NCBI GenBank assembly: GCA_038208905.1
Contig: JBBQYG010000028.1
Span: forward strand, 1-32,255
Direction of reading: 5' to 3'
DNA: 32,255 bases
From: Candidatus Sumerlaeia bacterium
GTDB taxonomy: Bacteria; Sumerlaeota; Sumerlaeia; SLMS01
The position numbers and the translations under genes were made by a program. The notes beneath the pieces are model-generated. The model was given only the letters and a program-made list of their open reading frames with translations. It was not told the origin of the DNA and ran no database searches. Shown here piece after piece: positions 14,872-32,255 of this stretch (its first letter is position 1; every line of letters starts with the position of its first letter).

Positions 14872-16320
14872 CTACTGCAAGTGAGACAAAAGCACGCCAG
14901 CCGCCACCGCCGATCCAATGACACCCGCCACGTTGGGCCCCATCGCGTGCATCAGGAGGAAGTTCTGGCGGTCCTCCTCGTGGGCGACTCGTTGGACAAC
15001 CCGGGCCGACATGGGAACGGCGGATACCCCAGCCGCCCCGATGAGTGGATTGATCTGCTCCTTCGACACCAGATTCATCAACTTGGCGAAAAGCACGCCA
15101 CCCGCGGTCGCCATGCTGAAGGCGATCACCCCAAGGACGAAGATGCCGATGGTCTGCCACGTGAGGAAGTTCGATGCCTGGGTCTTTGCACCCACCGTAA
15201 GCCCCAACAGGATCGTCACGATATCGATCAGGGACGTCTGCGCGGTCTTGGCGAGACGTTCCGTCACCAGCGACTCGCGCAGCAGGTTGCCGAGGAACAG
15301 CATCCCGAGCAGTGCGAGCGCTGCGTTGGCGATGAAGGCCGTCAGCAGGAAGCCAAGAACCGGAAACAGGACGCGGATCAGCCGCGGTGTCTCCACCGGT
15401 GGCGGCATCCGGATCAGTCGCTCTGCCCGCGTCGTCAACAGGCGCATGATGGGCGGCTGGATGATGGGAACCATCGCCATGTAGCTATACGCCGAGAGCG
15501 CCACCGCGCCCAATAGGTGGGGCGCCAGTGTGGAACAGGTGAAAATCGCCGTTGGTCCATCTGCGCCGCCAATGATGCCGATGGAGGCAGCCTCCTTCAT
15601 GTCGAAGCCAAGGAGCACCGCGCAGGCCAGCGCGCCAAAGATGCCCACCTGGGCAGCCGCGCCGAGCAGGATCAGGCGAGGCTTGGCGAGGAGCGGGCCG
15701 AAGTCCGTCAGCGCGCCGACGCCAAGAAATATCAATGGAGGAAAAAATCCCCATTCGATCCCGCGAAAGAGGATCCAGAGAACGCTCGCATTCCATGCAT
15801 CCTGCTGGGTTAGTGGTATCACCACGGGATACCGGTGATCCTCCCGCGCCTCGGCCACGAATACCATGTGGCCGCCGCGTCGGAGCTTGTGCTGGCCGGG
15901 CGGCGGTGGCACCACCTTGCCCGATTCATCGCGATGGATATAGACAATCGACTCCTCGGAGTGAGCCATCACGGCCTTGCCCTGTTTCACCAGATCGAGA
16001 TGCGCGGAAAGGTATGGCCTCTCGATCTTCTCGTTGGCGGCATACTCCTTTCCCAGTATCTCCATCGCCTCTGTCGTGTAGTAGTCCAGCTTGGCCTCGC
16101 TCACGGGGCCGTCGTACACGCTCAGGCTCAGCTTCTCCGCGTTGTAGGGGATATTGCCCAGCAGAATGCCGAATCCGATCGGAACGAGCAGCAGCGGCTC
16201 GAAGCCCTTCCGTATAGCAAGATAGATAAATAGCAGGCCGATTCCGATCATTACCATGCTCCCGCCGGTGAACTGGCCAAAGCCGGAATCGTGGATGAAT
16301 CTAAACAGCGTCTCGCCCAT
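14872..16320 (-). CDS. mmdB: Na+-translocating decarboxylase beta subunit (OadB/MmdB family)
   Basis: Motifs FEPLLLVPIGFG, FPPLIFLGVGALTDFGPL, IGIIGGADGPTAIF, AYSYMAMVPIIQPP, GVSAVPMSARV and HAMGPNVAGVIGSA. Confidence 0.96.
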   Translation of the reverse strand: MGETLFRFIHDSGFGQFTGGSMVMIGIGLLFIYLAIRKGFEPLLLVPIGFGILLGNIPYNAEKLSLSVYDGPVSEAKLDYYTTEAMEILGKEYAANEKIERPYLSAHLDLVKQGKAVMAHSEESIVYIHRDESGKVVPPPPGQHKLRRGGHMVFVAEAREDHRYPVVIPLTQQDAWNASVLWILFRGIEWGFFPPLIFLGVGALTDFGPLLAKPRLILLGAAAQVGIFGALACAVLLGFDMKEAASIGIIGGADGPTAIFTCSTLAPHLLGAVALSAYSYMAMVPIIQPPIMRLLTTRAERLIRMPPPVETPRLIRVLFPVLGFLLTAFIANAALALLGMLFLGNLLRESLVTERLAKTAQTSLIDIVTILLGLTVGAKTQASNFLTWQTIGIFVLGVIAFSMATAGGVLFAKLMNLVSKEQINPLIGAAGVSAVPMSARVVQRVAHEEDRQNFLLMHAMGPNVAGVIGSAVAAGVLLSHLQ

Positions 16321-16356
16321 ATAACTGCTCTTTTCTTGAGAAGTGCGTGCGCCGAC

Positions 16357-16743
16357 TCACTCGAATTCCACGAGCGCCTGTCCGGCCTTCACCGCGTCGC
16401 CAACCGAGACGAGTACCGCCTTGATGCGCCCCGTGCGGTCGGAGGAGATGGCGGTCTCCATCTTCATCGCCTCCAGCACCAGCATCTCGTCGTTTGGCTT
16501 TACCTGATCGCCGGCCTTCACGTGAATGCCCCGGATCGTTCCAGCCAGCGGCGCAACAAACGTATTCCCCCCGGCTGGCGCTGGCTGGGCTGCCGCCGCC
16601 GGAGCCACCGCGGGAGGATCGGCCCGATGCACCGGCGCCGGCGAGGCCGCCAGGATAGGCGGGGCGGGGTGCACCGTGTGATCGTCCAGAATCTCAACGT
16701 CCACGTCGTATGCCGTACCCTGAACGGTGATGCGCAGCTTCAT
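16357..16743 (-). CDS. mmdC: Biotin carboxyl carrier (gamma) subunit of methylmalonyl-CoA decarboxylase
   Basis: EAMKME biotinylation motif, Ala/Pro-rich linker and operon context. Confidence 0.92.
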   Translation of the reverse strand: MKLRITVQGTAYDVDVEILDDHTVHPAPPILAASPAPVHRADPPAVAPAAAAQPAPAGGNTFVAPLAGTIRGIHVKAGDQVKPNDEMLVLEAMKMETAISSDRTGRIKAVLVSVGDAVKAGQALVEFE

Positions 16744-17123
16744 GAGTCTCTTCTCCTCGGATGGTGGGAGGTCTGCACTTCGCGGCGACCCGTTTCAGAC
16801 CAGGCGGAGCCGGCCGATGGAGCCGCGATTCGGATGCGGGTGACGCGGGCACCGGTGCCCAGGGACGCGACAACGGCTGCACTGATGACGGCGACGATCT
16901 CCGGGGGGATGCCCGTGGGCTGCGTGGCGGGGGACTGGATAGTGGGAGTCTTTTCCGCCACTGGCGCGGGAGTGAGCGAGAATCGTCGGAGCAGAACCAG
17001 CAGGCCCTGCATCGCAACCAGCGCGGCAAAAACCACCGCGATGCCCACCGCGGAAAGCTGCAATGCATCGATGAAGCGCGTCTCGGCGACTTCCAGGTCA
17101 TAGGCCAACAGTATCAGCGACAT
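16740..17123 (-). CDS. mmdD: OadG/MmdD family membrane anchor (delta) subunit
   Basis: Single TM segment (GIAVVFAALVAMQGLLV), Pro-rich linker, EIVAVISAAV and W-x3-GR C-terminal motif, lying between mmdA and mmdC. Confidence 0.85.
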   Translation of the reverse strand: MSLILLAYDLEVAETRFIDALQLSAVGIAVVFAALVAMQGLLVLLRRFSLTPAPVAEKTPTIQSPATQPTGIPPEIVAVISAAVVASLGTGARVTRIRIAAPSAGSAWSETGRREVQTSHHPRRRDS

Positions 17124-17134
17124 CGTCCAGTCCT

Positions 17135-18706
17135 TTACATGGGAATCAGGCCGTGCTTCTTCTCTGGCCTAAGCTCGCGTTTGCGATACAGAGTCTCCAG
17201 CGCCTGCGCCAGATAGCGTCGTGTGTCGCCGGGATCGATCACGTTGTCCACCAGTCGGCGAGAGGCGGCAGTGTAGGGAGAGGAGAACGTGTCGCGGTAC
17301 TCGAGGATGAGCTCCTCGCGGCGAGACGCGGGATCCTCAGCGGCCTCGATCTCCTTCTTGAAGACGACGGCGACGGCGCCCTCCGCGCCCATCACCGCGA
17401 CTTCCGCCGTGGGCCACGCGGCGACGCGATCCGCGCCCAGGTCCTTCGAAGCCATCGCGACATACGCGCCGCCATAGGCCTTGCGCAGGATGATTGTGAT
17501 CTTGGGCACTGTGGAAGCCGAATAGGCGAAAAGGATCTTTGCTCCGTGCCGTATAATGCCACCGTATTCCTGCCGCGAGCCGGGCAGGAATCCCGGCACA
17601 TCCACGAAGGTAATAATCGGAATGTTGAACACATTGCAGAAGCGCACGTGCTCCGCGATCTTGTCGGAACTGTCGATATCCAGCACTCCCGCCACGGCGT
17701 TGGGCTGATTTGCGACGAGTCCGACGGAGCGACCCAGTATGCGCGCGAAGCCGACCACCACGTTTTTGGCAAAGAGCGCCTTTACCTCCATGAAGTCGGC
17801 GTTGTCCACCACGCGCTTGACGATGTCGCGGACGTCGTACGCGCGTTTGCTGTCGTCGGGGATGACATCGACGAGGGTGCTGTCGTAATCCACCATGCCG
17901 TCGTGGGCCAGGTGTGGCGGATCCTCCAAGTTGTTCTGGGGAAAGAAGGCGAGAAGGCGCCGCGCGATCCGCATCGCGTCGCGGTCATCCTCCGCGATGA
18001 AGTGGATGTTCCCCGCGCGGGACATCTGGCTGACGGGCCCGCCGAGTTCCTCGGCGCTGATATCCTCGCCGGTGAGTTGCTTGATCACGGCGGGGCCCGT
18101 GATAAACATCTGGGCCTGGCGCGTCTGGATGACGAAGTCGGTGAGTGCGGGGCTGTACGCGGCGCCGCCCGCGCACGGCCCGCAGATCAGCGAGATCTGG
18201 GGCACGACGCCGGAGAGCAGCGTATTGTGAAAGAAGATGCGGCCATAGGCGCCGAGCGAATCGATCCCCTCCTGAATGCGCGCGCCGCCGGAATCGTTGA
18301 TGAAGATGAACGGCGCACCGGTCTTGAGCGAGAGCTTCATCATCTCCACGATCTTGTCGGCGTGCACCTCTCCCACGGCGCCGCCGCCGGTCGTGAAATC
18401 CTGGCTGGCAAGGTGCACCTGTCGCCCGTCGATCTGGCCGATTCCCGTCGCAACTCCATCTGCGTGCATCTCCTGCTTCTCCATGCCGAAAACAGTCACG
18501 CGGTGGCGGGCAAAGAGGAAGAGCTCGTGGAACGAATCCGGGTCCAACAGCTCTGCGATGCGCTCGCGGGCAGAGAGTTTACCCTGCTTGTGCATCTTCT
18601 CCACGCGGTCGGGCCCGCCCATGGCGAGCACCGTGGCGCGCCTCCGGGCCAGATCCTCCACCTTCTCTCGGTTCGTCATCTGCTTGCGGCGTTCATTCTT
18701 GGCCAT
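17135..18706 (-). CDS. mmdA: Carboxyltransferase (alpha) subunit of methylmalonyl-CoA decarboxylase
   Basis: Motifs GKLSARERI, DSGGARIQEG, GPCAGGAAYSPALTD, DVPGFLPG, RKAYGGAY and KKHGLIPM. GGGAG RBS upstream. Confidence 0.93.
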   Translation of the reverse strand: MAKNERRKQMTNREKVEDLARRRATVLAMGGPDRVEKMHKQGKLSARERIAELLDPDSFHELFLFARHRVTVFGMEKQEMHADGVATGIGQIDGRQVHLASQDFTTGGGAVGEVHADKIVEMMKLSLKTGAPFIFINDSGGARIQEGIDSLGAYGRIFFHNTLLSGVVPQISLICGPCAGGAAYSPALTDFVIQTRQAQMFITGPAVIKQLTGEDISAEELGGPVSQMSRAGNIHFIAEDDRDAMRIARRLLAFFPQNNLEDPPHLAHDGMVDYDSTLVDVIPDDSKRAYDVRDIVKRVVDNADFMEVKALFAKNVVVGFARILGRSVGLVANQPNAVAGVLDIDSSDKIAEHVRFCNVFNIPIITFVDVPGFLPGSRQEYGGIIRHGAKILFAYSASTVPKITIILRKAYGGAYVAMASKDLGADRVAAWPTAEVAVMGAEGAVAVVFKKEIEAAEDPASRREELILEYRDTFSSPYTAASRRLVDNVIDPGDTRRYLAQALETLYRKRELRPEKKHGLIPM

Positions 18707-19127
18707 TGCTTACTCCCGCTGGATTAGGCTCGCAGAGTTCGGTGAGAATCCCCGCACTGGACTTCGGATGGAGGAAGGCAACCTTCATGTGGTGGGCGCC
18801 GATGCGCGGCGTCTCGTCGATCAGGCGCACGCCCTCTGCCTTCAATTCGTCGAGGCGCGCCTGGATGTCCTTCACTTCATAGGCAATGTGGTGCATCCCC
18901 TCGCCCTTCTTCTCGATGAACTTCGCGATGGTGGAATCGGGAGTCGTCGGCTCCAGAAGTTCCAGCTTCACCCCGCCGATGCGGAAAAAGGCGACGCGGA
19001 CTTTCTGCTCGGGGACTTCCTCGATGCCTTCGAAACTTGCGCCCAGCGTCTGCTCATAGAAGGGGCGTATCTCGTCGATCGAGCGCACGGCGATTCCGAT
19101 GTGGTTCACGGCGCCGGGTGTCTTCAT
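18693..19127 (-). CDS. mce: Methylmalonyl-CoA epimerase
   Basis: VOC-fold metal ligands in NHIGIAV, LELLEP, GEGMHHIAY and FLHPKS..GILTELCE. Start set at the ATG at 19127. Confidence 0.94.
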   Translation of the reverse strand: MKTPGAVNHIGIAVRSIDEIRPFYEQTLGASFEGIEEVPEQKVRVAFFRIGGVKLELLEPTTPDSTIAKFIEKKGEGMHHIAYEVKDIQARLDELKAEGVRLIDETPRIGAHHMKVAFLHPKSSAGILTELCEPNPAGVSNGQE

Positions 19128-19128
19128 T

Positions 19129-20217
19129 CTATTGTTCCTTTCCCGATTCGCGAAACGCGAGATCGACAAGCTGGGTGGCGGCATCGAAGGGGGAAAGCGC
19201 CCCCTCCATCACGCGACGCTCGGCGATGGCCCGTGCGCCGTCGATGCCGGGGGTATTTGCAAAACGCTCGCGCACGAGGTACTCGATGGTCTGGTTCATC
19301 CAAAAGACGGATTGCTCCCGTCGCTTGGCATCGCGGCGCCCGAGCCTGACAGACTCGGCCATCCACGCGCGCAGATTCCCCCACAGGCTCTCGATTCCAG
19401 TCCCCTCCTTCGCGGAACAAAGCACCACCTGTGGGGAAGGGGCGTTGGCGCGTGGCGCGATGAGGTGCAGGGACGCGCGCAGCAGGGACATCGCCTTGCG
19501 CGCCGCGGGAAGGCTCTCTCCGTCGGCCTTGTTGATCGCGATGCCATCGGCGATCTCCAGAATGCCGCGCTTGATGCCCTGCAACTCGTCACCCGCGCCG
19601 GGCATCATCAGCAGGAGGAAGAAATCCACCATCGAGGCGGCTTGGGTTTCGGACTGACCGACGCCGACGGTCTCCACGATCACCAGGTTGAATCCCGCCG
19701 CCTCGCACACCAGAATCGATTCGCGCGAGGCGCGCGCGACCCCGCCAAGCCAAGAGCCGCTAGCCGATGGGCGCACCATCGCATCGGTGTGCATCGCCAG
19801 GCGCGTCATCCGGGTCTTGTCGCCCAGAATGCTGCCGCCGGTGATTTCGCTGGATGGGTCGATGGCGAGCACGGCCACCCGCGTGGCGCTTGCCTCGATG
19901 GCGTGCATTCCCAGTGCCTCGATGAAGGTGCTCTTGCCGACGCCGGGGACGCCGCTGATCCCAAGGCGGAATGAGCGTCCCGCGTGGGGAGCCAGCAGGG
20001 CGAGCAACTCCCGCCGTTCGGCCTGGTGCCGCCCGGCGGTACTTTCCAGCAGTGACAACGCCCTCCCAATCGAGACGCGGTCACGCGCGATGACCCCGGC
20101 CGCCAACACATCGGGCGCGAGGTTTGCCTTGCGAAGGAGAGTCACGTCCTCCCTCACGGCGGGCGATTCTGGCTCGCCGGGCATGACGCGTGGAGCGGTG
20201 CCGCGCTTGGTGCTCAT
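19129..20217 (-). CDS. meaB: Methylmalonyl-CoA mutase-associated GTPase MeaB
   Basis: Motifs [49 protein letters not shown] and INKAD. ATGA overlap with mutB. Confidence 0.95.
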
Positions 20218-22376
20218 TTTGAGGGCTGTTCCATCGCTTCGTGTCCCGCCTGACGGAGGAGAAGGTGAAGAATCTGCTTCGCCGCCTCGGGGATCACCGT
20301 TCCCGGGCCGAATACGCCCACGCATCCGGCGTCATGGAGGAACTTGTAGTCCTGGGCGGGAATCACGCCGCCACAGATCACCAGGATGTCGGGGCGTTTC
20401 AGCGCGCGCAGCTCGGCGATCAGCTCCGGCACCAGGGTCTTGTGCCCGGCGGCAAGCGAGGACACGCCCACCAGGTGCACGTCGTTCTCCACGGCTTGGC
20501 GCGCGACTTCCGCGGGGGTCTGAAACAATGGGCCGATGTCCACATCGAATCCCATATCGGCAAAGGCCGTTGCGATCACCTTGGCGCCGCGGTCGTGGCC
20601 GTCCTGGCCCAGCTTCGCGACGAGGAGGCGCGGTCGGCGCCCCTCGAGCTTGGCGAATCGCGCGGCCAGTTCGATCCCCTCCTTCAACGCCGGCATGTTC
20701 TCCGCCTCCTGTCTATACACGCCGCTGATCTGGTGGATCTGGGGCTGGTAGCGTCCAAAGACCGATTCCATCGCGGTGGAGATTTCTCCGAGCGTCGCGC
20801 GCTTGCGCACGGCGTCGATGGCGAGCTCCAGCAGGTTCGCATCGCCCGCTGCGCCCGTCGCGATGGCTGAGAGGGCCGCTTGGACTTCGCTTTCTACGCG
20901 GTTCGCGCGTAGCTCCGCCAAGCGGTGGAGCTGCGCCTCGCGCACGGCATTGTTGTCGATGTCGAGGATATCGATCGGGTCTTCCTTGGCAAGCCGATGC
21001 TTGTTCAGGCCCACGATTGTTTCGCGCCCACTGTCGATGCGGGCTTGCTTGCGGGCGGCGGCCTCCTCGATCCGCATCTTGGGGATGCCGGTTTCGATGG
21101 CGCGCGCCATGCCGCCCAACTCCTCCACCTCCTCGATCAGGGCCCAGGCCTTGTCCATCAACTCCTTCGTCAGCGATTCCACGTAGTACGATCCCGCCCA
21201 CGGGTCCACCACCTTGCAGATGTTGGTCTCCTCCTGCAGGATCAACTGGGTGTTGCGGGCGATGCGGGCGGAGAAGTCGGTGGGAAGCGCAATGGCCTCG
21301 TCGAGAGCGTTGGTGTGGAGCGACTGGGTGTGGCCAAGAGCCGCGGCCAGCGCCTCGATCGCCGTCCGCGTCACGTTGTTGTAGGGATCCTGCGCCGTGA
21401 GGGACCAGCCGCTGGTTTGCGAGTGTGTGCGCAGCGCCATCGACTTCGGGTTCTTTGGATCGAAACCCTTCACCAGGCGGGCCCACAGCACGCGTGCCGC
21501 GCGCATCTTGGCCACCTCCATGAAGTGATTCATCCCGATGGCCCAGAAGAAGGAGAAGCGTGGCGCGAAGTCGTCCACCGCCAGACCGGCGGCCAGGCCC
21601 GCGCGTATATACTCCACGCCATCGGCCAGGGTATAGGCGATCTCCAGGTCAGCCGTGGCGCCAGCCTCCTGCATGTGATAGCCAGAGATGGATATGGAAT
21701 TGAACTTGGGCATGTTCCGCGAGGCGTAGGCAAAGATGTCGCGGATCAGCCGCATCGACGGAGTGGGGGGATAGATGAAGGTGTTCCTGACCATGAACTC
21801 CTTCAGGATGTCGTTCTGGATCGTGCCAGAAAGCTTGTCCGGCGCGATGCCCTGTTCCTCTGCGGCGACGATATACATGGCGAGGATCGGAATCACCGCG
21901 CCATTCATCGTCATGGAGACGGAAATCCTGTCGAGCGGGATGCGGTCGAAGAGGATCTTCATGTCCAGGATCGAATCGATCGCGACGCCCGCCTTGCCAA
22001 CGTCCCCCGCCACGCGCGGATGGTCGCTGTCGTAGCCGCGATGAGTCGCGAGGTCGAAGGCCACCGAGAGTCCCTTCTGCCCCATCGCCAGATTTCGCAG
22101 GTAGAAGGCGTTGGACTCCTCCGCCGTGGAAAAGCCCGCGTACTGACGCACGGTCCAGGGCTTCAGCGCATACATCGAGGCATAGGGCCCGCGCAGGAAG
22201 GGCGCTATTCCCGGCAGGTAGTCCAGATGATCCATCGCGGCCAGGTCCCGCTCTGTATAGACAGGCTTGACGGCGATTCCCTCGGCTGTCATCCACGGGG
22301 GCGCGACTGACGGGGGCCCCGTTGCATCGCCGCGTTCCACTTCGTAGGCAATCTGGGTGAAGTCAACCGATGTCAT
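20214..22376 (-). CDS. mutB: Methylmalonyl-CoA mutase, catalytic large subunit
   Basis: Motifs [42 protein letters not shown] and the B12-binding motif [10 protein letters not shown]...SSLAAGH. Confidence 0.97.
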
Positions 22377-24559
22377 GATACTGTCTCCTGCCTCGTATCG
22401 AGGCGGTCGAGGAGCGCCGTCATTTCTGTCAGGATGTTTGAGCGGACGTGGACGAAGCCATCGACACCCGCCGCGCGGAGCGCCTCGGCCGTGGGGGGAT
22501 TCCCCGCGATATACACGAGCGGCCTTGTGGTCGCGGGCCCCAGCTCTGCCATCAACCGCTTCGTAAAATCCATGTATGAGTCATCGTCGCTGCACGCCAC
22601 CACCACGTCGGGGTGGGCCTCGCGAATATTTGCGACGGCCTTGGTGGGGTCGGCGGCGGGGGAGGACTCTGTGATGGAAAAGCCCGCCGCAGCAAATGCC
22701 GAGTGCGAGAAATCCGCGCGCGCCCGGCGCATTCCCGCGGGACCAAACGTCAGCAGCAGCACGCGGGGAACACCCGCGCCCCGGGTCGCGACGCGCGCGC
22801 GGAGCATCTCGTATCCTTCCGACAGCCGGATCGCGGGGAGCGGCTTCACCGCGATCGCTTCGTCGCCCTTCGCGGCCGCGTCCAGCGCGGCGCAAATCTC
22901 TCCGATCGTCGCTCCGCACTCGGCGGCTTTCAGCGCCACGGCAAACGCGCCACCCACGACATTCTGACTCAGCGACTCCGTCAGTTCGCCCAGCAGCGCG
23001 GCGACTTCCCTGGCGGGCCGCGTCCCCCTCAGGAGCGCGAGGCGATGGCGGCGCTCCTCTACGAATTCCGCGCGGGGAATGTGGCTGGTGGGAAGCGGCT
23101 TCTCCGCCGGATCTGCGTAGTTGCTGACACCGACAACAGGCGCGCGACGCGCAGCCACGGCAGAAAGGCGCTCCTTCGCGGTGGCAAGCACCGTCTCCTG
23201 AATACGGCCCGACTTGAGCGATGCGACGATGCCGCCGTCGGACTCGATCCGCTGAAATTCCGCCCACGCGGCGCGCGCCGCCGAATCGGTTAGGGACTCG
23301 ATCAGATAGCTGCCGCCGGCGGCGTCCACGACGCGTGCCAGATGGGCTTCCTCCTGAAGCAATAAATGCTGATTCCGCGCCACGCGCATGGAGAAGTCGT
23401 CGGGGCGCCCGGCCACCTCGTCGAACGGCGCGATATACAGCGAGTCGCATCCGCCCAGCCCCGCGGCAAAGCCCTCCACCGCCGCCCGGACGATGTTGTT
23501 GTAGGGATCCACGCGGCTCTTGGTCATGGCACTTGTCCGCGCGTGGAGGAACATGCGATGCGCCGCGGGGTCCTCCGCGCCCATCAACTTGGATATACGC
23601 GCCCACAGCATCCGCGCCGCGCGGAGCTTGGCGATCTCCATGTAGAGATTCGTCGAAACCGAGAAGCTGAACATCATGCCCATCGCAGCCGTGCCAGGCT
23701 TTGTCCCGTGGCCGATGAGGCGGCGTATGTACTCCACACCGGTAGCCAGAGTCGCCGCCAGTTCCTGCGTCGCGCTGGCCCCTGCGTTGTGCCACGGGTG
23801 GCTGTTCACGACCACCGGGCGGATTCCCGGTGCATGGAGAGCGCACCAGTCAACCATCTCGGCCATCTCGCGGAACCGCATGGCGAGCGACCCGCCGCGC
23901 ACGTGCCCCGACTTGACCAACTCCCTCACGGGGTCGCACTCCACCGATCCCGTCAGCACGCGTGGATCGACGCCGCGTTCAAGCGCCACGGCAATGTGCA
24001 TCGCCAGCACGGGAAACGCCGCGGAGCCCGTGCGGAAGGAGACCGGGTGCTCGGCCAGATTCACATCCTGCAGTGCGACGCGGATTCCATTGACCGAGGT
24101 TGCAGCCATGCCGCCGCGCCCCACCAGGTCCGCCGCGCGTGCCTCGTCCCCGTCCAACCCGCGCCGGGCCGCGTTGTCCAGCCGGATGCCCACAGCCGTC
24201 CCGCCGCGGGCCAACCCGTCGCGAATCGCCGCGTTGGCTTCCGCCGGGGAGGCCAACAACACGTCCTGCCTGATCTGCCACGGGGGGAGCACACCGGATA
24301 GCGCCTCGCACCCGCGAACGTAAGGCGCCGCCCCGGGATCGCTATTCAGATGCGGCAAATCGGCGATGTCCTCCCGCCGATACAGCGGGTTCACCGCGAT
24401 CCCCTCCGGCGTCCGCCAAACCAGCTTCTTCTCAAAGGGGGCCCCCGCCAAATCCTTCTCAACCGCAGAGCGCCACGCTTCCATGCTGGGCACGGGGAAG
24501 ATCTCGCCCAGCGGAGCGGCGGCGACTCTCGGCTGATCGGTGATGACCGGTTGGCTCAT
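22373..24559 (-). CDS. mutA: Methylmalonyl-CoA mutase, non-catalytic small subunit
   Basis: Mutase homology ([41 protein letters not shown]) with no DxHxxG motif. GGAGG RBS before the ATG at 24559 and ATGA overlap with mutB. Confidence 0.93.
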
Positions 24560-24796
24560 GGCGTCCCTCCAGATTCCTGACCTACTCGCTTTTTGGGGGC
24601 TGTACTTACAGTAGCGCCCTGACGGCCCCAAGAGTGCGAGAGAAATCGGGGCGGAATCAAGACAAAATAGGTCGAAGTTATCGCCTTTATTGAGGCGAGG
24701 CCTCGTCGCATTATTCCATCTGGATCCCGCAGGACTTTCGCGGTGGGCGGATGCTGCCATCTGCCCGGCTATTTCTTCCCCGACCGCGCCTTTAAG

Positions 24797-24828
24797 GGGA
24801 TTCCGTCCCACGCTTTTGGACGAATCCC
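24797..24828. terminator. GC-rich hairpin just downstream of arsM (possible terminator or stability element)
   Basis: GGGATTC-C-GTCC-9 nt-GGAC-GAATCCC, 17 nt from the arsM stop. It lacks a good U-tract. Confidence 0.45.
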
Positions 24829-24845: not shown

Positions 24846-25724
24846 TCACTCCGATGCCTTCCGCGCGCTGAAATTCAGGCTCGTCACAAAATCCGAGGCC
24901 TTCGATCCCGCGGGGAGTTCCGAGACCACCCGCGCGTATAGCGGGTCGTTCCATCCGGTCATCGCATCCACATAGCCGTCCTTGCGCTCCAGAACGATGT
25001 CCGCGAGGCCAGCCTCGCGGGCGAGGCGTTCGGTTTCGCTGATCAGCGAGGCGCCGGAAACGCAGCCGACGAGGGCCTCGACCATCTGGGCGACGGCGGT
25101 CGGAAGCGGCTTCACCAGGGCGATGTCCGACACGGCAACGCGGCCACCGGGCTTGAGAACGCGGGCGATCTCCCGCCAGACCTGAGGCTTATCGGGCGAG
25201 AGGTTGATGACGCAGTTGCTGATGATCACGTCCACGCTGGCGTCGGGGAGGGGCAGGTGCTCGATCTCTCCGAGGCGAAACTCGACGTTGTCGAGGCCGC
25301 TGGTCTCGCGATACTTGGCGGAGTTTCTGCGGGCCTTGGCCAGCATCTCCGGCGTCATGTCCACGCCGATGGCGCGGCCCGCGGGGCCGACCTTGCGACC
25401 GGCGATAAACACGTCGAAACCGCCTCCCGAGCCGAGGTCCACGACAACCTCTCCCGGGCGAAGCGCGGCGAGCGCCGTGGGATTGCCGCATGAAAGGCCC
25501 ATATTGGCGCCCTCGGGCACCCCGGAAAGGTCGGCGGCGGCGTAGCCGATGGCCGTGGCAAGCGCCTCTGCGTCATCGGCGCCGTCGGGTCCGCAGCAGG
25601 ATGACCCCGCGCAGCAACCGGTGGCGCTGCCCCTGGGCTCGGGATTCTGTTCCGCGATGGCGGCGTACCCCGCGCGGACGGTTTCGCGGACGGTCTGGTG
25701 TTGAAGGGACTCGGCGATCGACAT
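24846..25724 (-). CDS. arsM: Arsenite S-adenosylmethionine methyltransferase
   Basis: Motifs [46 protein letters not shown] and GCVSGA. AAAGGAG RBS upstream, and the gene lies downstream of arsR. Confidence 0.92.
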
Positions 25725-25796
25725 GGTGATATCTCCTTTGATTCGGGCGAGGGTGGAATGGAGATGAGAATCCGGTGTAGCTACGACCTGCAAGTC

Positions 25797-26222
25797 CTAC
25801 ACGTGGCTCACGGCGGCGCTCCCTTGGCCTGTGCCAGCGGCGCAGCATTTGATCCCCTTCGCCTGAAGCTGACACAGCTCCTCTGGCGAGTAGGAAAGGA
25901 TGGTCCCCAGTTTGCAGCAGTCTGAAACGATGGCCTTCTCCTTGGCGGCCTGCCGGCACAGCCATCCAAGGATCTCCGCCGCGTCCTCCGGTATCTCCGA
26001 TTCGTCGGAAATGCGGTAGTACGCCCATCGACCTTCCTTGCGGGACTGCACCAGCCCGGCGCCGGAAAGCAGGCTGAGGTGCTTGGAGGTGGTGGAAGGC
26101 GCCAAGGCGAGAAGCTCCTGGATCTGGCAGACGCAAAGCTCCCCCCGGCCCTTGAGGGCGCAGAGGACGCGAATCCGGTTCAGATCCGATAGGGCCTTGG
26201 TGATGGCGAGGATGTGGCGCAT
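25797..26222 (-). CDS. arsR: ArsR/SmtB family metalloregulator
   Basis: KALSDLNRIRVL, ELCVCQ alpha3 motif, SKHLSLL..AGLV..RKEGRWAYY, and a Cys-rich C-terminus. Confidence 0.92.
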   Translation of the reverse strand: MRHILAITKALSDLNRIRVLCALKGRGELCVCQIQELLALAPSTTSKHLSLLSGAGLVQSRKEGRWAYYRISDESEIPEDAAEILGWLCRQAAKEKAIVSDCCKLGTILSYSPEELCQLQAKGIKCCAAGTGQGSAAVSHV

Positions 26223-26397: not shown

Positions 26398-28944
26398 TTG
26401 AAACGACTCAATCGCGTAATCCCCGCTCTTGCCATCGCCGCATCTTGCGGTGCTTCGGCATGGGGCGCCGAACTGGCCTATGATATCGTTATCTGCGGGG
26501 GCTCCTTTAGCGCCCCCGCCGCCGCCTTTGCCGCCGCGCGGACTAATCCCAGCGCCCAGGTGCTCCTGATCGAGCCCACCGACTGGCTCGGCGGGCAGGG
26601 CACGAGCCAGGGTGTCTCGGCGATCGACAACTCCTATCACGCGCCCGCCAACACGCTGATGGCCAACAACCAGTCAACATACTATCCGGCGGACTATCGG
26701 AACTGGCTGGACCGCATGAGGACCGCGCCGCAGGCCGCTCCGGGCGAGGGGTACGCGGGGTTCTCCGGCTGGGTGTCGCGGGATTGCTATGACCCGCGGA
26801 CGGGTGCGTGGGCGCTCGACGAGATATCGGCGACGTTTCCCAATCTCACGGTGATGAAGCTGACCGTGGTCAAGTCGGTGCAGACCGAGGCCGTGGCCGA
26901 CGAGCACGGCGCGGGGCTACGGATAACGGGGCTCACGCTGATCCAGCGCGCTCCCCAGGTTGGATATTCGCCCTTCGACGACTTCCTCTCCGAGGAACTT
27001 CCCGACTGGTACAGCGCCGCCGCTTCCGCGCGCTTCACAAAGCAAACCCACACGGTGACCGCGCGAGTCCCCGCGAGGGGAATGGTCGTGATCGAGGCCA
27101 GCGAACTCGGCGACGCGATGGTGCTCAGTGGCGCCGTCTATACACAGGGCCGCGAGGTCAGCACGGAGAAGGTGGCTGAAAACGGCGCCCTTCCCGCCTA
27201 TAACGACGCCCAGCCGATGGCGCTCGTGTATCCGTTTGCGATGGGCACCGGCGCCGCCGATGCCGAGGAGGGGCTGAAGACGCCGTGGGCGGATTTCGAG
27301 GCCTATCTGGCGGAGCGCACGGCCAACTACTTCAGTCTGGCCTCGTTTACATGGACCCAAGTGTGGACATACCGGCGACTGTTGCTCGGGGCCGGCGGAT
27401 CGAACTCCCAGAGCGTCATCAACGCCGGCGACGTATCCATGCAGAACTGGAATCCCGGCAACGACTATCGACAGGGGTCGTGGCTTCTTGGCAAGGCCGC
27501 GACCGATGCCCAGGCCGCCGACTGGTCTGGCGCGACCAACCTGGAATCGATCTCCCGCGCGGAGCAGCAGGCCGTGGCGTGGTACTTCTGGCTCAAGGGC
27601 CGGAAGCCCGCCGGATTCACCGCGCCGGATACCCGGCTCCTCCGGGGGAGCGACTCGCTCAACATGATGGGCACCAAGCACGGCCTCGCAAAGTTCCCGT
27701 ATATACGCTGCATGCGGCGCCTGGTGGGAATCGACAACTTCCGCATTTCCAGCCGGTACTTCGTGAATACCCAGGGCGTCGGCTACGCCGACGAGACGTC
27801 CTATCGCTACTTTGATTCCGTCGGCATCGGCAGCTATACCGCCGACGTCAGGCCGCTGCTCTCCAGCACCGGCGTTGTTCCACCGTTCAGCTTCTGCGCG
27901 CCCTTCTATATCCCGTACCGCGCGCTGGCTTCCCAGAACGTGCGCAACCTGCTGGCGAGCGGCAAGGCGATGGCGCAGACGTATATCACCAATTCCGCCT
28001 ACCGGCTGCACCCGATCGAATGGCAGAGCGGCAGCGCGGCGGGCACCGCGGCGGCGCTGATCTGGCGCGACGGCATCACGAATCGCGACATGCTGGAGAT
28101 TCCCGCGCTCCGCGAGCTGCAGGCTGAGGTGGCCACGAACGCGCCGATCCGGTGGGCCTATCGCGGCGAGCCCGTGATCCCGCCCCAAGACGGCGACTTG
28201 ATCGTGTTTGACCTGAATCCGCTGCCGCGAAACATCACCTTCGAAGTCGAAGCCTATCACCCCAACGCGGTGCGCGCGGAGATCCGCGTCAACGGCACGT
28301 TGATCGGAAGCACGACGACGCGCGCCAACGGGCGGCTCCTGTACATCGGCAGCGACGTCGTCAGCGCGGTATCGCCCGCGGTGTTCGAGGCGCGTTGCTT
28401 CGGCGCGGGGGACACGCTCGTCGCCACGCTGACCGCCAACGTGGTCATCACCGATCCCGTGACGCCGTGCGAGGTCGAGGTCGGCGTTACCGACAACGAC
28501 GACACCGACGGCTACTTCACGACCACTGGCTCATGGAGCTCCGGCACCGCCCAGCCCGATCGGTGGTGCCCCTCGCGGCCCGGTGCTTCCTACGCGCTGA
28601 CCAGCAGCAACGATGGCAATCGCATCGCACAATGGCGACCGAGGATTTCCGTGCCCGGTATCTATGAAGTCTCGATCTGGTATTCCGCCTCCTCGAACCG
28701 CGCGACCGATGCGCGGTTCACGGTTATCCACCGCGACGGCGCGGCCGCATCGCGGGTCAATCAGCGCCTCGCCGGTGGGCAGTGGCGCGTGCTGGGCAGC
28801 TATCCACTGACGGGCGACGTCGATGAGCGCGTAGAGCTTCGAAACAGCCACACAACCAACGGCGAGTTCATCATCGCGGATGCCGTGCGAGTGAGGCTCA
28901 TCGAGCCGTTCACAACCGAAGTCGGGGCGTGGGCCATCTTTTGA
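26398..28944 (+). CDS. Secreted FAD-dependent oxidoreductase-family protein with a C-terminal golvesin/xanthan-lyase-CBD-like domain and VxxWxxF tail
   Basis: Signal peptide ending SAWG-A. N-domain DIVICGGSFSAPAAAFAAAR..VLLIEPTDWLGGQ, PYIRCMRRL, PFYIPYRAL and YRLHPIEW. C-domain DNDD..FTTTGSW, GIYEVSIWY, VNQR..GGQWRVLG and IIADAVR. TTG start with GAGGAG RBS. Confidence 0.82.
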   Translation: MKRLNRVIPALAIAASCGASAWGAELAYDIVICGGSFSAPAAAFAAARTNPSAQVLLIEPTDWLGGQGTSQGVSAIDNSYHAPANTLMANNQSTYYPADYRNWLDRMRTAPQAAPGEGYAGFSGWVSRDCYDPRTGAWALDEISATFPNLTVMKLTVVKSVQTEAVADEHGAGLRITGLTLIQRAPQVGYSPFDDFLSEELPDWYSAAASARFTKQTHTVTARVPARGMVVIEASELGDAMVLSGAVYTQGREVSTEKVAENGALPAYNDAQPMALVYPFAMGTGAADAEEGLKTPWADFEAYLAERTANYFSLASFTWTQVWTYRRLLLGAGGSNSQSVINAGDVSMQNWNPGNDYRQGSWLLGKAATDAQAADWSGATNLESISRAEQQAVAWYFWLKGRKPAGFTAPDTRLLRGSDSLNMMGTKHGLAKFPYIRCMRRLVGIDNFRISSRYFVNTQGVGYADETSYRYFDSVGIGSYTADVRPLLSSTGVVPPFSFCAPFYIPYRALASQNVRNLLASGKAMAQTYITNSAYRLHPIEWQSGSAAGTAAALIWRDGITNRDMLEIPALRELQAEVATNAPIRWAYRGEPVIPPQDGDLIVFDLNPLPRNITFEVEAYHPNAVRAEIRVNGTLIGSTTTRANGRLLYIGSDVVSAVSPAVFEARCFGAGDTLVATLTANVVITDPVTPCEVEVGVTDNDDTDGYFTTTGSWSSGTAQPDRWCPSRPGASYALTSSNDGNRIAQWRPRISVPGIYEVSIWYSASSNRATDARFTVIHRDGAAASRVNQRLAGGQWRVLGSYPLTGDVDERVELRNSHTTNGEFIIADAVRVRLIEPFTTEVGAWAIF

Positions 28945-28956
28945 TCGGAGAGCAGC

Positions 28957-29565
28957 GTGCAGGCAGCCTACCGTGTCGAGGAACGCGAATCGCCGCCGTG
29001 GATCGTCGAGGTGCAGCCAGCCGACGGCTTCATCATGAACACGCGCTATACCACGGATTTCCGCATTCGCGGCGTGGTGTATGAGATGCTGAAGAAGGCG
29101 CGCGCGGCGCTCCCCGCTGGATATGCGATCGTCGTGTACGAGGCGTTCCGCCCCCGCGCCCGGCAGTGGGAGCTGTGGAATGGAATGGAAGCGAAAATGC
29201 GCGCAGCGTTTCCTTCGGAGAGCGACGAGCAGATCTACACACGCACCCGCGAGTTCGTCGCTGATCCACGTGGATTCGGAAGCGGCCATCAGGCCGGCGG
29301 CGCCATCGACGTGACGCTGTCCGACGCCGCCGGGCGAGAGCTGGACATGGGCACGGAAATGGACGAGGTGACGGAGAAGACCCACACCGATTCGCCCCAT
29401 CTCTCCGACGCGCAGCGTGCCAATCGGCGCATCCTCCTCGATGCAATGGCCGCAGGCGGGCTGGTCAACTATCCCTCGGAGTGGTGGCACTATTGCTATG
29501 GCGACCGCCTCTGGGCCGAAATGACAGACGCTCCCGTGGCATTCTTTGCCCCCCTCGCGGAGTAG
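28957..29565 (+). CDS. D-alanyl-D-alanine dipeptidase (VanX/DdpX, M15D metallopeptidase)
   Basis: Motifs YEAFRP..RQ, SGHQAGGAIDVTL, LDMGT and YPSEWWHY. Confidence 0.9.
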   Translation: MQAAYRVEERESPPWIVEVQPADGFIMNTRYTTDFRIRGVVYEMLKKARAALPAGYAIVVYEAFRPRARQWELWNGMEAKMRAAFPSESDEQIYTRTREFVADPRGFGSGHQAGGAIDVTLSDAAGRELDMGTEMDEVTEKTHTDSPHLSDAQRANRRILLDAMAAGGLVNYPSEWWHYCYGDRLWAEMTDAPVAFFAPLAE

Positions 29566-30913: not shown

Positions 30914-32255
30914 TTACGTCACATTGGGATCGGCGTGGATGAGATGCTCCTCGTCCGCCTCGTCGGTAAGTGTTTCATCCCGGCGATGCCACAGCCGATA
31001 CAGGGCCGGGAGCACAACCAGCGTCAGTAGCGTTGAGGAAACGATCCCGCCGACCACAACAGTCGCGAGGGGGCGTTGGACCTCCGCCCCGTTGCCGGTG
31101 GAGAGCGCCATCGGCACAAAGCCGAGGCTTGCCACCAGCGCCGTCATCAGGACGGGACGCAGCCGCGTCATGGCGCCGTCGCGGATTGCGTCCTCCAGCC
31201 CCATGCCTTGCTTGCGGAGGTGGTTGATGTAGCTGACCATCACCAGTCCGTTCAGCACCGCGACGCCCGACAGCGCGATGAAGCCCACGGCGGCGGAGAT
31301 CGAAAAGTCGATCCCGCGCAGCCACAGCGCGAACACGCCGCCGGTCAATCCCAATGGAACTCCGGTGAAAACCAGCGTCGCATACTTCACCGAATTGAAG
31401 GTGGAGAACAGTAGCAGGAAGATGACGAAGAAGCAGACCGGCACCACGATCAGCAGCCGCTCGCGGGCGCGCTGAAGATTCTCGAAGGTGCCACCGTATT
31501 CGAGCCAGCTTCCCGCGGGAATCGCGAGGTCGCTGGCGATGCGGGAACGGGCCTCGGAGACGTAGCCCCCCAGGTCTCGCCCGCGGACGTTGGCCTGGAT
31601 CACGATGCGGCGCTTGCCGTTCTCGCGGCTGATCTGATTCAGCCCCTCCTCGATGCGGATCGTGGCAATCGATCCGAGGGGGACATAGGATGCCGGCGGC
31701 ACCGCGTCGAGACCCGCGACCTGAAGATCGTCCTCCACGGGGATCGGAATCGGAAGCCCCTCGATGGCGGTGATGTCGCGGCGGACTTCCTCGGGAAGCC
31801 GCACGACGAGGCTGAATCGACGGTCGCCCTCGAAGACAAGGCCCGCCTCGCGTCCGCCAATGGCGATGGCGATGACCTCCTGGACGTCCTCCATCGTGAG
31901 GCCAAAACGCGCCGCCGCGCCGCGGTCGATGTCGATCGTCATCACGGGAAGCCCCTCGATCTGTTCCACCTTCACGTCCTCGCCGCCGGGGATTGCGCCC
32001 AGGACCCGCGCGATCTGGTTGGCGGCGGGGAGCAACACGTCGAAGTCGTCGCCGTAGAGCTTGATGGCGAGATCGCTTCTCACTCCGGCGATCAACTCGT
32101 TGAATCGCATCTGGATCGGCTGGAGGAATTCGTAGTTATTCCCCGGGAGCTTGGACACGGCCGCCTCCACGCGCTGGCGCACGTCCTCGATGGAGTCGCC
32201 GGGATTCGGCCACTCGCTCTTGGGCTTCATGATGATGAAGGTGTCGGAGACGCTG
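30914..32255 (-). CDS. CzcA/CusA family heavy-metal efflux RND permease (3' part; gene runs beyond the window edge)
   Basis: Motifs QPIQMRFNELIAGVRSD, ISRENGKRR, NVRGRDLG, VGFIALSGVAVLNG, RLRPVLMTALVASLGF and EVQRPLATVVVGG. The frame is open to the window end. Confidence 0.95.
   Translation of the reverse strand, partial: SVSDTFIIMKPKSEWPNPGDSIEDVRQRVEAAVSKLPGNNYEFLQPIQMRFNELIAGVRSDLAIKLYGDDFDVLLPAANQIARVLGAIPGGEDVKVEQIEGLPVMTIDIDRGAAARFGLTMEDVQEVIAIAIGGREAGLVFEGDRRFSLVVRLPEEVRRDITAIEGLPIPIPVEDDLQVAGLDAVPPASYVPLGSIATIRIEEGLNQISRENGKRRIVIQANVRGRDLGGYVSEARSRIASDLAIPAGSWLEYGGTFENLQRARERLLIVVPVCFFVIFLLLFSTFNSVKYATLVFTGVPLGLTGGVFALWLRGIDFSISAAVGFIALSGVAVLNGLVMVSYINHLRKQGMGLEDAIRDGAMTRLRPVLMTALVASLGFVPMALSTGNGAEVQRPLATVVVGGIVSSTLLTLVVLPALYRLWHRRDETLTDEADEEHLIHADPNVT

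Follow-up and report, generated by a model that had tools for sequence, protein, structure and literature searches.

What is the function of a short, tryptophan-bearing C-terminus on an exported protein, when nothing in it resembles the anchors by which bacteria are known to sort proteins? The question is raised by a 32,255-nucleotide stretch of Candidatus Sumerlaeia bacterium (contig JBBQYG010000028.1 of assembly GCA_038208905.1; this whole stretch is called the window below), in which a gene at positions 26398-28944 of the forward strand encodes an 848-residue exported protein that ends in TTEVGAWAIF. A preliminary description of the window had proposed that this end belongs to a VxxWxx[YF] motif, recurrent on secreted proteins of Sumerlaeota and serving as a sorting signal. 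The end, called the tail here, is a real, protein-level motif, locked to the C-terminus of exported, unrelated proteins. On sequence grounds, we consider it rather probable that it is a new C-terminal sorting or surface-retention signal lacking a transmembrane (TM) segment.

The frequency of the motif can be estimated in the source genome (4.24 Mb in 301 contigs, 64.5% GC, 93.9% complete), of which the window is one contig. The gene set was obtained using a home-made codon-bias score followed by greedy removal of overlaps, yielding 2891 genes from open reading frames (ORFs) of at least 80 residues, which cover 81.5% of the DNA. Among these genes, Trp shows the strongest enrichment of all residues at position -4 from the C-terminus (85 genes, 2.1-fold), and at position -5, where it occurs in 65 genes (1.6-fold), Lys alone surpasses it. 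The motif V..W..[YF] at the exact C-terminus is found seven times, for 0.18 expected from its internal frequency. Allowed anywhere in the last 10 residues, as the preliminary description had suggested scanning for it, it is found 16 times for 0.74 expected, and 15 of these 16 proteins have signal-peptide-like N-termini. The core W-x-[LIMV]-[FYH], followed by no or one further residue, ends 50 of the 2891 genes. Its 283 occurrences inside proteins, over 1.10 million positions, would predict 1.48 (Poisson, 3e-57).

The positional lock is sharp. Counted by the number of residues that follow the core (0, 1, 2 and so on), the occurrences are 28, 22, 1, 0, 2, 0, 1, 1, 1, 1, 1, 0..., and each of registers 2 to 15 holds between 0 and 2. 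The consensus in the source genome is P-P-S-S-[VA]-x-[ND]-W-x-[LM]-[YF]-(N/E/Q). The last residue is F, Y or H in 28 of the 50 tails, and the other 22 carry an extra polar N, E, Q, K or D. The motif first described is, thus, recurrent at C-termini, but its core is W-x-[LM]-[YF], and Val is merely one of two common residues three positions before the Trp (15 V and 15 A in the 50 tails). A leave-one-out position-specific scoring matrix (PSSM) finds 50 terminal Trp sites at 4 bits or more, for 0.40 expected, and it also catches variant ends, such as WMLR, WQWFD, or WMMLSD.

A short motif in a GC-rich genome, with many spurious ORFs and a home-made gene caller, invites the suspicion of an artefact: the tail might reflect chance or composition, might stem from repeated DNA where genes end, or might simply be the final strand of the domain before it. 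The excess over expectation and the sharp register profile argue against chance and composition, as do the ORFs rejected as non-genes, only nine of which, out of 15,164, have the core at their end. Synonymous codons vary between tails (for Leu, CTC 12, CTG 7, TTG 5, CTT 3, and CTA 3; for Tyr, TAC 19 and TAT 6; for Phe, TTC 13 and TTT 6) and the DNA 3' of the tail stop codons shows no conservation; the signal is, therefore, carried by the protein, and no DNA repeat underlies it. With the reversed-pattern controls and the domain limits given below, an artefact is scarcely credible, and these controls refute it as far as they go.

The proteins that carry the tail are, for the most part, exported. 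Using a permissive signal-peptide test (37% of all genes are positive), 44 of the 50 tail proteins are signal-peptide-like, compared with 1026 of the 2841 other genes (odds ratio 13, Fisher 7e-14). Their N-termini are mostly of the classic type-I form, with MKK, a hydrophobic stretch, and AxA, and four of them have a lipobox-like Cys. Several of the six negative carriers are cut by a contig end or have an over-extended start. They are also unrelated to each other: after removal of the last 15 residues, the 50 proteins fall into 44 groups without BLAST relationship, so the enrichment that the preliminary description had asked for, among signal-peptide proteins of unrelated domains, is borne out.

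Pfam matches at 1e-5 are obtained for 27 of the 50, in more than 15 families, none of which is an inner-membrane or housekeeping periplasmic family. The enzymes include alpha-amylase and CotH (both with LTD), Endonuclease_1, Glyco_hydro_18, Trypsin_2, GHL10, Reprolysin, Arylsulfotransferase, and Lactonase. Repeat, binding, or structural domains are represented by TSP_3/FG-GAP, Golvesin_C (three proteins), fn3, F5_F8_type_C, Beta_helix, NHL, Glucodextran_C, and CBM96. One carrier, a CP_ATPgrasp protein, has no signal peptide and looks cytoplasmic; its tail is probably a chance match. As a control, 20 signal-peptide-like proteins without the tail were drawn at random, and at least six of the 13 that could be annotated are membrane or housekeeping proteins (for example, GT2, FtsW/RodA, HlyD, M48, a 7TM transglutaminase, and a DegS-like protease).

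The position of the tail relative to the preceding fold can be followed on the focal gene, whose features, all on the forward strand, are as follows.

26398-28944, + strand: gene of the 848-residue exported FAD-oxidoreductase/Golvesin_C protein that carries the tail; TTG, the start of the longest ORF, is its putative start
26398-26469, + strand: signal-peptide-like N-terminus LKRLNRVIPALAIAASCGASAWGA, assigned by a crude heuristic and not by a trained predictor, with a putative cleavage site
26482-28125, + strand: FAD_oxidored domain (PF12831), residues 29-576 (Pfam, E 1.2e-46)
28489-28893, + strand: Golvesin_C domain (PF25275), residues 698-832 (Pfam, E 2.4e-29); the last modelled strand reaches residue 837
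28912-28929, + strand: linker TTEVGA, residues 839-844, of differing length and sequence among orthologues
28930-28941, + strand: tail core W-A-I-F, residues 845-848, with W845 kept in 10 of 10 aligned orthologues; modelled as coil, with a predicted local distance difference test (pLDDT) value below 50
28942-28944, + strand: TGA stop, read from the sequence, immediately 3' of the tail

The ORF ends in VRVRLIEPFTTEVGAWAIF followed by TGA, an end that can also be given as IIADAVRVRLIEPFTTEVGAWAIF before the same stop; TTEVGAWAIF and the stop occupy positions 28912-28944, with the codons ACA ACC GAA GTC GGG GCG TGG GCC ATC TTT TGA. The Golvesin_C match covers profile positions 3-130 of 132 and stops at residue 832, so residues 839-848 lie outside the last domain. 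The ORF and the Pfam limits, thus, confirm that the tail comes after the last folded domain. When the C-terminal 250 residues are modelled with AlphaFold2 (AF2; mean pLDDT 76), the last strand covers residues 231-239 of the fragment and ends at residue 837 of the protein; residues 838-848 are coil, the last four of them below a pLDDT of 50. The preliminary description had named one alternative beforehand as refuting, namely that the tail is an integral last strand of the Golvesin_C fold. The tail lies outside both the Pfam match and the modelled strand, it is also found behind more than 15 other families, and three database proteins of other architectures in which Golvesin_C is the C-terminal domain (P0018, P0019, and P0023) stop 2-5 residues past ...ADA[IV]R[IVL]ER[IV], without any tail. 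The alternative is, therefore, ruled out.

Conservation of the tail is evident in two unrelated families. Nine full-length orthologues of the focal protein from relatives, at 72-49% identity, end in GWSIF, GWAIH, GWAVY, LWVMN, SWELE, TWSLHDY, SWHLY, SWVVR, and SWILSEKAAGVR. The Trp is invariant over the ten aligned sequences, behind a linker of 4-10 residues that differs in length and sequence. Of 17 database proteins sharing the two-domain architecture, 13 carry a Trp in one of the final five positions. The second family, whose member in the source genome has 305 residues, has retained the Trp in all 11 members and the core expression in 10 of them, at 25-56% identity and with variable linkers, and its orthologues alternate between the registers with 0 and 1 trailing residue. 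Its model (pLDDT 78) has a low-confidence tail, and its fold bears a weak similarity to jelly rolls that bind carbohydrate (8wab and 7vbo; target TM-score 0.55). Over the AF2 models of both families, the last strand stops 10-13 residues before the C-terminus, and the tail has a pLDDT below 50. As judged from these alignments, the tail Trp appears to be under purifying selection, being conserved while its surroundings drift.

The distribution of the tail was surveyed using a narrow DNA pattern, [ND]-W-x-[LM as HTG]-[FY]-TRA, with the reversed pattern as a control; in the source genome, it finds 3 + 5 of the 50 tails. Over the 75 genomes of the phylum, register 0 yields 208 matches and 16 controls, and register 1 yields 146 matches and 20 controls. 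Families f7, f1, f15, and f5 are tail-rich, and f13, f12, and f6 have tails mainly in register 1. Family f16 (G067-G073) is nearly tail-free, with 0-1 match over both registers in six of its seven genomes and seven matches in G072. A direct census agrees with six core tails in 282 genes for G057 of f7 (400 kb, 0.13 expected), two in 261 genes for G043 of f13 (390 kb, 0.19 expected), and none in 132 genes for G069 of f16 (200 kb of a complete 6.0-Mb genome, 0.10 expected). In the G057 sample, 11 ends fit [AGSKN]V..W..[YFH]. With the queries used, orthologues of the focal protein and of the 305-residue family are each found in none of the seven f16 genomes, and a beta-helix tail protein has four homologues only, too small a set to reveal other anchors in other phyla. 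Five outgroup genomes from outside Sumerlaeota gave three matches to the narrow pattern against four controls, which is no excess.

A wider search used the extended pattern [ST]-S-V-x-D-W-x-[LM]-[FY]-stop over genome_contigs, a set holding one genome for each of 185,579 species. It returned 62 matches, 36 of which lie in short open frames and are read as chance. The other 26 end long ORFs: 13 are in records labelled Sumerlaeota or BRC1, 11 in unlabelled 'bacterium' records, one in an Omnitrophota record, and one in a Spirochaeta record, this last being a 3.3-kb contig that also bears a Sumerlaeota-type pseudopilin. A second phylum-level group emerges (handles G080-G115, loci L286-L341), comprising 35 genomes of 4.1-8.4 Mb, with 333 pattern matches against 26 controls, up to 24 per genome, and a higher tail density than Sumerlaeota. 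Its record titles are unlabelled or read Candidatus Omnitrophota (11 of the 35 genomes, and relatives found). One family of this group ends in ...WFWG[LV]DN[IV]xIWG, 4-5 residues, and V-x-[DEN]-W-S-L-[YF] in all eight members read; its lone Verrucomicrobia-labelled homologue has a divergent end without the tail. Over 110 genomes, reversed-pattern controls are about 10-fold lower than the matches. Among the lineages scanned, the tail is, thus, lineage-restricted, yet present in two phylum-level groups. The tail habit ascribed to Sumerlaeota holds in that the tail is frequent there on unrelated secreted proteins, but it has to be amended for the second group and for f16. The hint to the taxon was sound, since related loci are titled 'Candidatus Sumerlaeota' or 'Sumerlaeia bacterium'.

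Which component of the envelope might read such an end? The source genome looks like that of a diderm and encodes one Omp85/BamA, four secretins, and two S41 peptidases. No match was obtained in this 93.9%-complete genome for sortase (PF04203; the control matched in three genomes) or for exosortase (PF09721; the control matched in one genome; rhombosortase and myxosortase were not searched for). When 43 of the 50 tail proteins were compared over their last 80 residues with the NCBIfam models (E up to 0.05), no sorting-domain model matched. The only relevant match, to choice-of-anchor Q (choice_anch_Q) on protein C3_10281, remains below threshold (22.5 bits for a cut-off of 25) and ends about 13 residues before the C-terminus, DAGAYQFGTYSDARQWQLYY; a paralogue ends in DVGAFEDMASVYEWSMF. 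This match directly precedes the tail of C3_10281, and it was counted for an anchor-like context.

An unbiased survey of the neighbours of tail genes brings out one recurrent family, which is pseudopilin-like. It comprises 31 paralogues by motif, of about 200 residues, with the common N-terminus GFTLIELLIVVAIIAILAAIAVPNFLEAQTR, a Pfam N_methyl match, a weak T2SSG match, and NCBIfam GspG and PilA matches below the cut-offs. Examples in the source genome, outside the window, are found at C44:7435-8100, C49:11151-11747, and C248:2363-3109. Six of the 89 immediate neighbours of tail genes are of this kind, for 0.95 expected (p 3e-4). In 12 of 79 pilin-centred loci from other metagenome-assembled genomes, an ORF with the core tail ends within 1.5 kb (binomial 5e-4, relative to a background of 20 in 400 random gene-centred windows taken from the source genome only); in the source genome itself, the figure is four of 25 pilin-centred windows. 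One pair, a pilin followed by a tail protein (C44:7435-9060), keeps its gene order in 11 of the 13 other genomes examined, and in some cases the stop codon of the first gene overlaps the start codon of the second. In units of this type (loci L230-L242), the second gene encodes an exported jelly-roll tail protein of 270-305 residues, similar to a carbohydrate-binding module (CBM). A complex prediction between the pseudopilin-like A2 (residues 50-221) and its operon partner A3 of the 305-residue family (22-305) has a score of 0.02 for a mark of 0.32, and is neutral on binding. The pilin family has 61-150 matches in each of 11 genomes tested in the second phylum-level group, and none at 1e-10 in three outgroup genomes. 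Overall, the pseudopilin adjacency is statistically real and weak as a mechanism, and it is the sole lead to the route.

Two single proteins were considered as readers and rejected. A giant secretin-domain protein of 1420 residues (C1:40486-44748 of the source genome), located near PilM-like genes, has open-frame homologues of 1100-1950 residues in 70 of the 75 genomes, including tail-poor ones. A secreted protein with two PDZ domains and no protease domain (C26:8741-10659), encoded directly upstream of a pseudopilin-like gene, has orthologues in only three other genomes, all of the family. Profiling for co-occurring genes, which the preliminary description had recommended, was thus unfruitful: pseudopilins, secretins, the giant secretin, and the 2xPDZ protein were followed, and none of them tracks the tail.

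The tail can be set beside the sorting signals described so far. To our knowledge, these are of few kinds, namely the sortase-type tripartite signals, the type IX secretion system (T9SS) domain, the type I secretion signals, and the beta-signal of outer-membrane barrels. The tripartite C-terminal sorting domains comprise LPXTG/sortase, PEP-CTERM/exosortase, GlyGly-CTERM/rhombosortase, and MYXO-CTERM/myxosortase, as presented in published descriptions (bioRxiv 10.1101/2023.06.07.544157; PMC3237569; PMC11980579). They resemble the tail in being short C-terminal signatures, restricted to certain lineages and borne by many unrelated signal-peptide proteins per genome. They differ from it by combining a motif, a TM helix, a basic cluster, and a cognate enzyme, whereas all 50 tails end 3-4 residues past the Trp without a TM segment. 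The preliminary description had set LPXTG, PEP-CTERM, and GlyGly-CTERM aside, which the missing TM segment and the silent sorting models in the 43 scanned tails uphold.

The C-terminal domain (CTD) of T9SS is likewise a C-terminal tag on Sec-exported hydrolases and adhesins, and directs them across or onto the outer membrane. It is a folded domain of about 70-100 residues, unlike the tail, which has about 4-12 residues, is modelled as disordered, and, in the 43 ends scanned, gives no TIGR04183/PF18962 match; its exclusion on the ground of length is, thus, also supported by the models. In the whole source genome, TIGR04183 gave one weak internal match with a silent control, and the T9SS part SprA_N gave none, but its control matched in no genome either. 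The beta-signal of outer-membrane proteins (OMPs), or the Y-x-F end read by DegS, is similar in presenting a C-terminal aromatic after hydrophobic residues on exported proteins of diderms. The beta-signal forms the final strand of a beta-barrel, its hydrophobic positions alternating. In the tail, conservation falls on W(-4), on a hydrophobic residue at -2, and on an aromatic one at -1, all behind a Pro/Ser linker; the tail differs further by its presence on soluble enzymes and CBM-type proteins, and by the polar last residue in 22 of 50. The WxL domain, which spans about 150-200 residues and contains two W-x-L motifs, mediates the non-covalent attachment of surface proteins in Gram-positive bacteria. 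It shares with the tail a W-x-L motif near the C-terminus of surface proteins, but no WxL Pfam family is matched among the 50 tail proteins at E 1e-5, and the domains preceding the tail are mutually unrelated. The architecture of the tail differs from that of every sorting signal listed here. No description of it was found in the openly accessible parts of the literature on Sumerlaeota/BRC1 or on C-terminal sorting signals, and the passages of PMC8092238 that deal with secretion, pili, the outer membrane, signal peptides, or extracellular proteins mention no such tail. The golvesin literature turned up Dictyostelium cell biology only.

A sorting or retention signal is the reading suggested by the C-terminal position, the association with export, the independence from the preceding domain, the conservation, and the distribution over two lineages. 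The carriers are mostly proteins of extracellular type, namely glycosidases, proteases, a nuclease, and repeat proteins resembling adhesins or CBMs. They would first be exported by the Sec pathway via their N-terminal signal peptide. An envelope component would then read the free, unstructured W-x-hydrophobic-aromatic end, presented on a flexible linker, and would either pass the protein across the outer membrane or retain it at the cell surface. Any statement on the route is guesswork, for which the excess of pseudopilin-like genes (type II secretion or type IV pilus-like) beside tail genes provides the only lead. A more specific version, which we regard as speculative, would make the tail an undescribed TM-less signal of 10 residues or fewer, found in two phyla and read by a pseudopilin-based apparatus of the type II secretion or type IV pilus-like kind. 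This apparatus would perhaps dock exported enzymes and lectin-like proteins onto the expanded pseudopilins, and so route or display roughly 2-4% of the proteome.

Several observations weigh against a dedicated signal of this kind. Gene calls, start codons, and the signal-peptide test all come from crude heuristics of our own. The focal tail is itself an atypical member by its flanks, with a leave-one-out PSSM score of 0.5 bits, and three of the 17 database orthologues have no Trp while a fourth has it 13 residues from the end, which indicates that the tail is dispensable for the focal enzyme. Many extracellular-type proteins of the source genome have no tail, including some of the random 20; the tail, therefore, labels some but not all of the exported extracellular-type proteins. 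Among the candidates examined, none could be identified as a receptor, protease, or transporter for the tail, and the poor conservation of the 2xPDZ protein removes one of them. The pseudopilin family is present in all 75 genomes of the phylum, about a third of them with at least 39-40 matches, and the counts in tail-poor families (13-39) overlap the tail-rich range. Since tail-poor families are no poorer in pseudopilins, this family does not track the tail. Secretin counts, if anything, run opposite to tail density, with 2-4 in f7 and 7-13 in f16.

Two other explanations would dispense with a sorting apparatus. The tail might be a ligand of a periplasmic PDZ or tail-specific protease (HtrA/DegS-like or CtpA), and so a tag for quality control, degradation, or maturation. 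PDZ domains of HtrA/DegS/Ctp-type proteases bind hydrophobic C-termini, DegS recognizes the C-terminal Y-x-F of outer-membrane proteins, and proteases of these types (DegS-like, HtrA-like, and S41 CtpA-like) are encoded in the source genome, together with RseP. In 28 of the 50 tails, the last residue is a free aromatic with a hydrophobic residue before it. Nevertheless, the tolerance of an extra polar residue in 22 of 50 and the change of register between orthologues fit recognition of a hydrophobic terminus poorly, and the conserved positions are p-3, p-1, and p0 instead of the usual p0 and p-2. Because this polar residue is tolerated and the conserved positions do not alternate, both the PDZ reading and that of a barrel beta-signal fit poorly. 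Such proteases are, moreover, near-universal, whereas the tail occurs in two lineages only, and the sole unusual PDZ protein, the secreted 2xPDZ one, is not conserved across tail-bearing genomes. A protease tag is, therefore, improbable in our view.

Alternatively, the tail could be a self-sufficient anchor, its side chains inserting in the interface of the outer membrane, or binding lipopolysaccharide or peptidoglycan, without any machinery. The richness in interfacial W, Y, F, L, and M, the flexible Pro/Ser linker, and the unstructured models agree with this, and no dedicated machinery was found among the candidates searched. On the other hand, three to four hydrophobic residues are generally known to give little membrane affinity, and a protein reader is suggested both by the N/D conserved ahead of the Trp and by the S-S-[VA] stretch. 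Simple membrane partitioning is, in particular, disfavoured by the strict closeness of the motif to the C-terminus (0-1 residue), which it leaves unexplained. Such an anchor is unlikely, a little less so than the protease tag, and a sorting or retention signal remains our preferred reading.

The surroundings of the focal gene in the window can be described briefly. The next ORF after its stop, on the same strand at 28957-29562 after a gap of 12 nt, is M15 D-Ala-D-Ala dipeptidase-like; on its 5' side, a divergent ArsR-family regulator and a S-adenosylmethionine (SAM) methyltransferase lie at 24849-26222 on the reverse strand. An antisense ORF of 447 residues within the focal gene (26917-28260, reverse strand) is typical of high-GC DNA and was passed over by the codon-bias caller. 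A methylmalonyl-CoA pathway cluster occupies 14875-24811 on the reverse strand, with two MM_CoA_mutase genes, a glyoxalase-type epimerase-like gene, a carboxyltransferase, OAD gamma, a biotin carrier, and an OAD beta of the Na+-pumping decarboxylase type. An AcrB-family ORF (30917-32230, reverse strand) covers profile positions 620-1020 of 1021 only and begins about 25 nt from the end of the window and contig; the gene is probably cut by the contig boundary.

If the preferred reading is true, a TM-less tag of about 4-10 residues, borne by some 2% of genes, would be a new kind of sorting signal, and it would imply further envelope machinery in uncultured, polymer-degrading phyla. The contrast in tail density within the phylum (in f16, six poor genomes and G072) constitutes a natural comparison for finding the genes of the reader. 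The tail also marks these lineages in metagenomes, and it offers a simple rule for the exoproteome of these organisms, including their chitinases, amylases, proteases, and nucleases.

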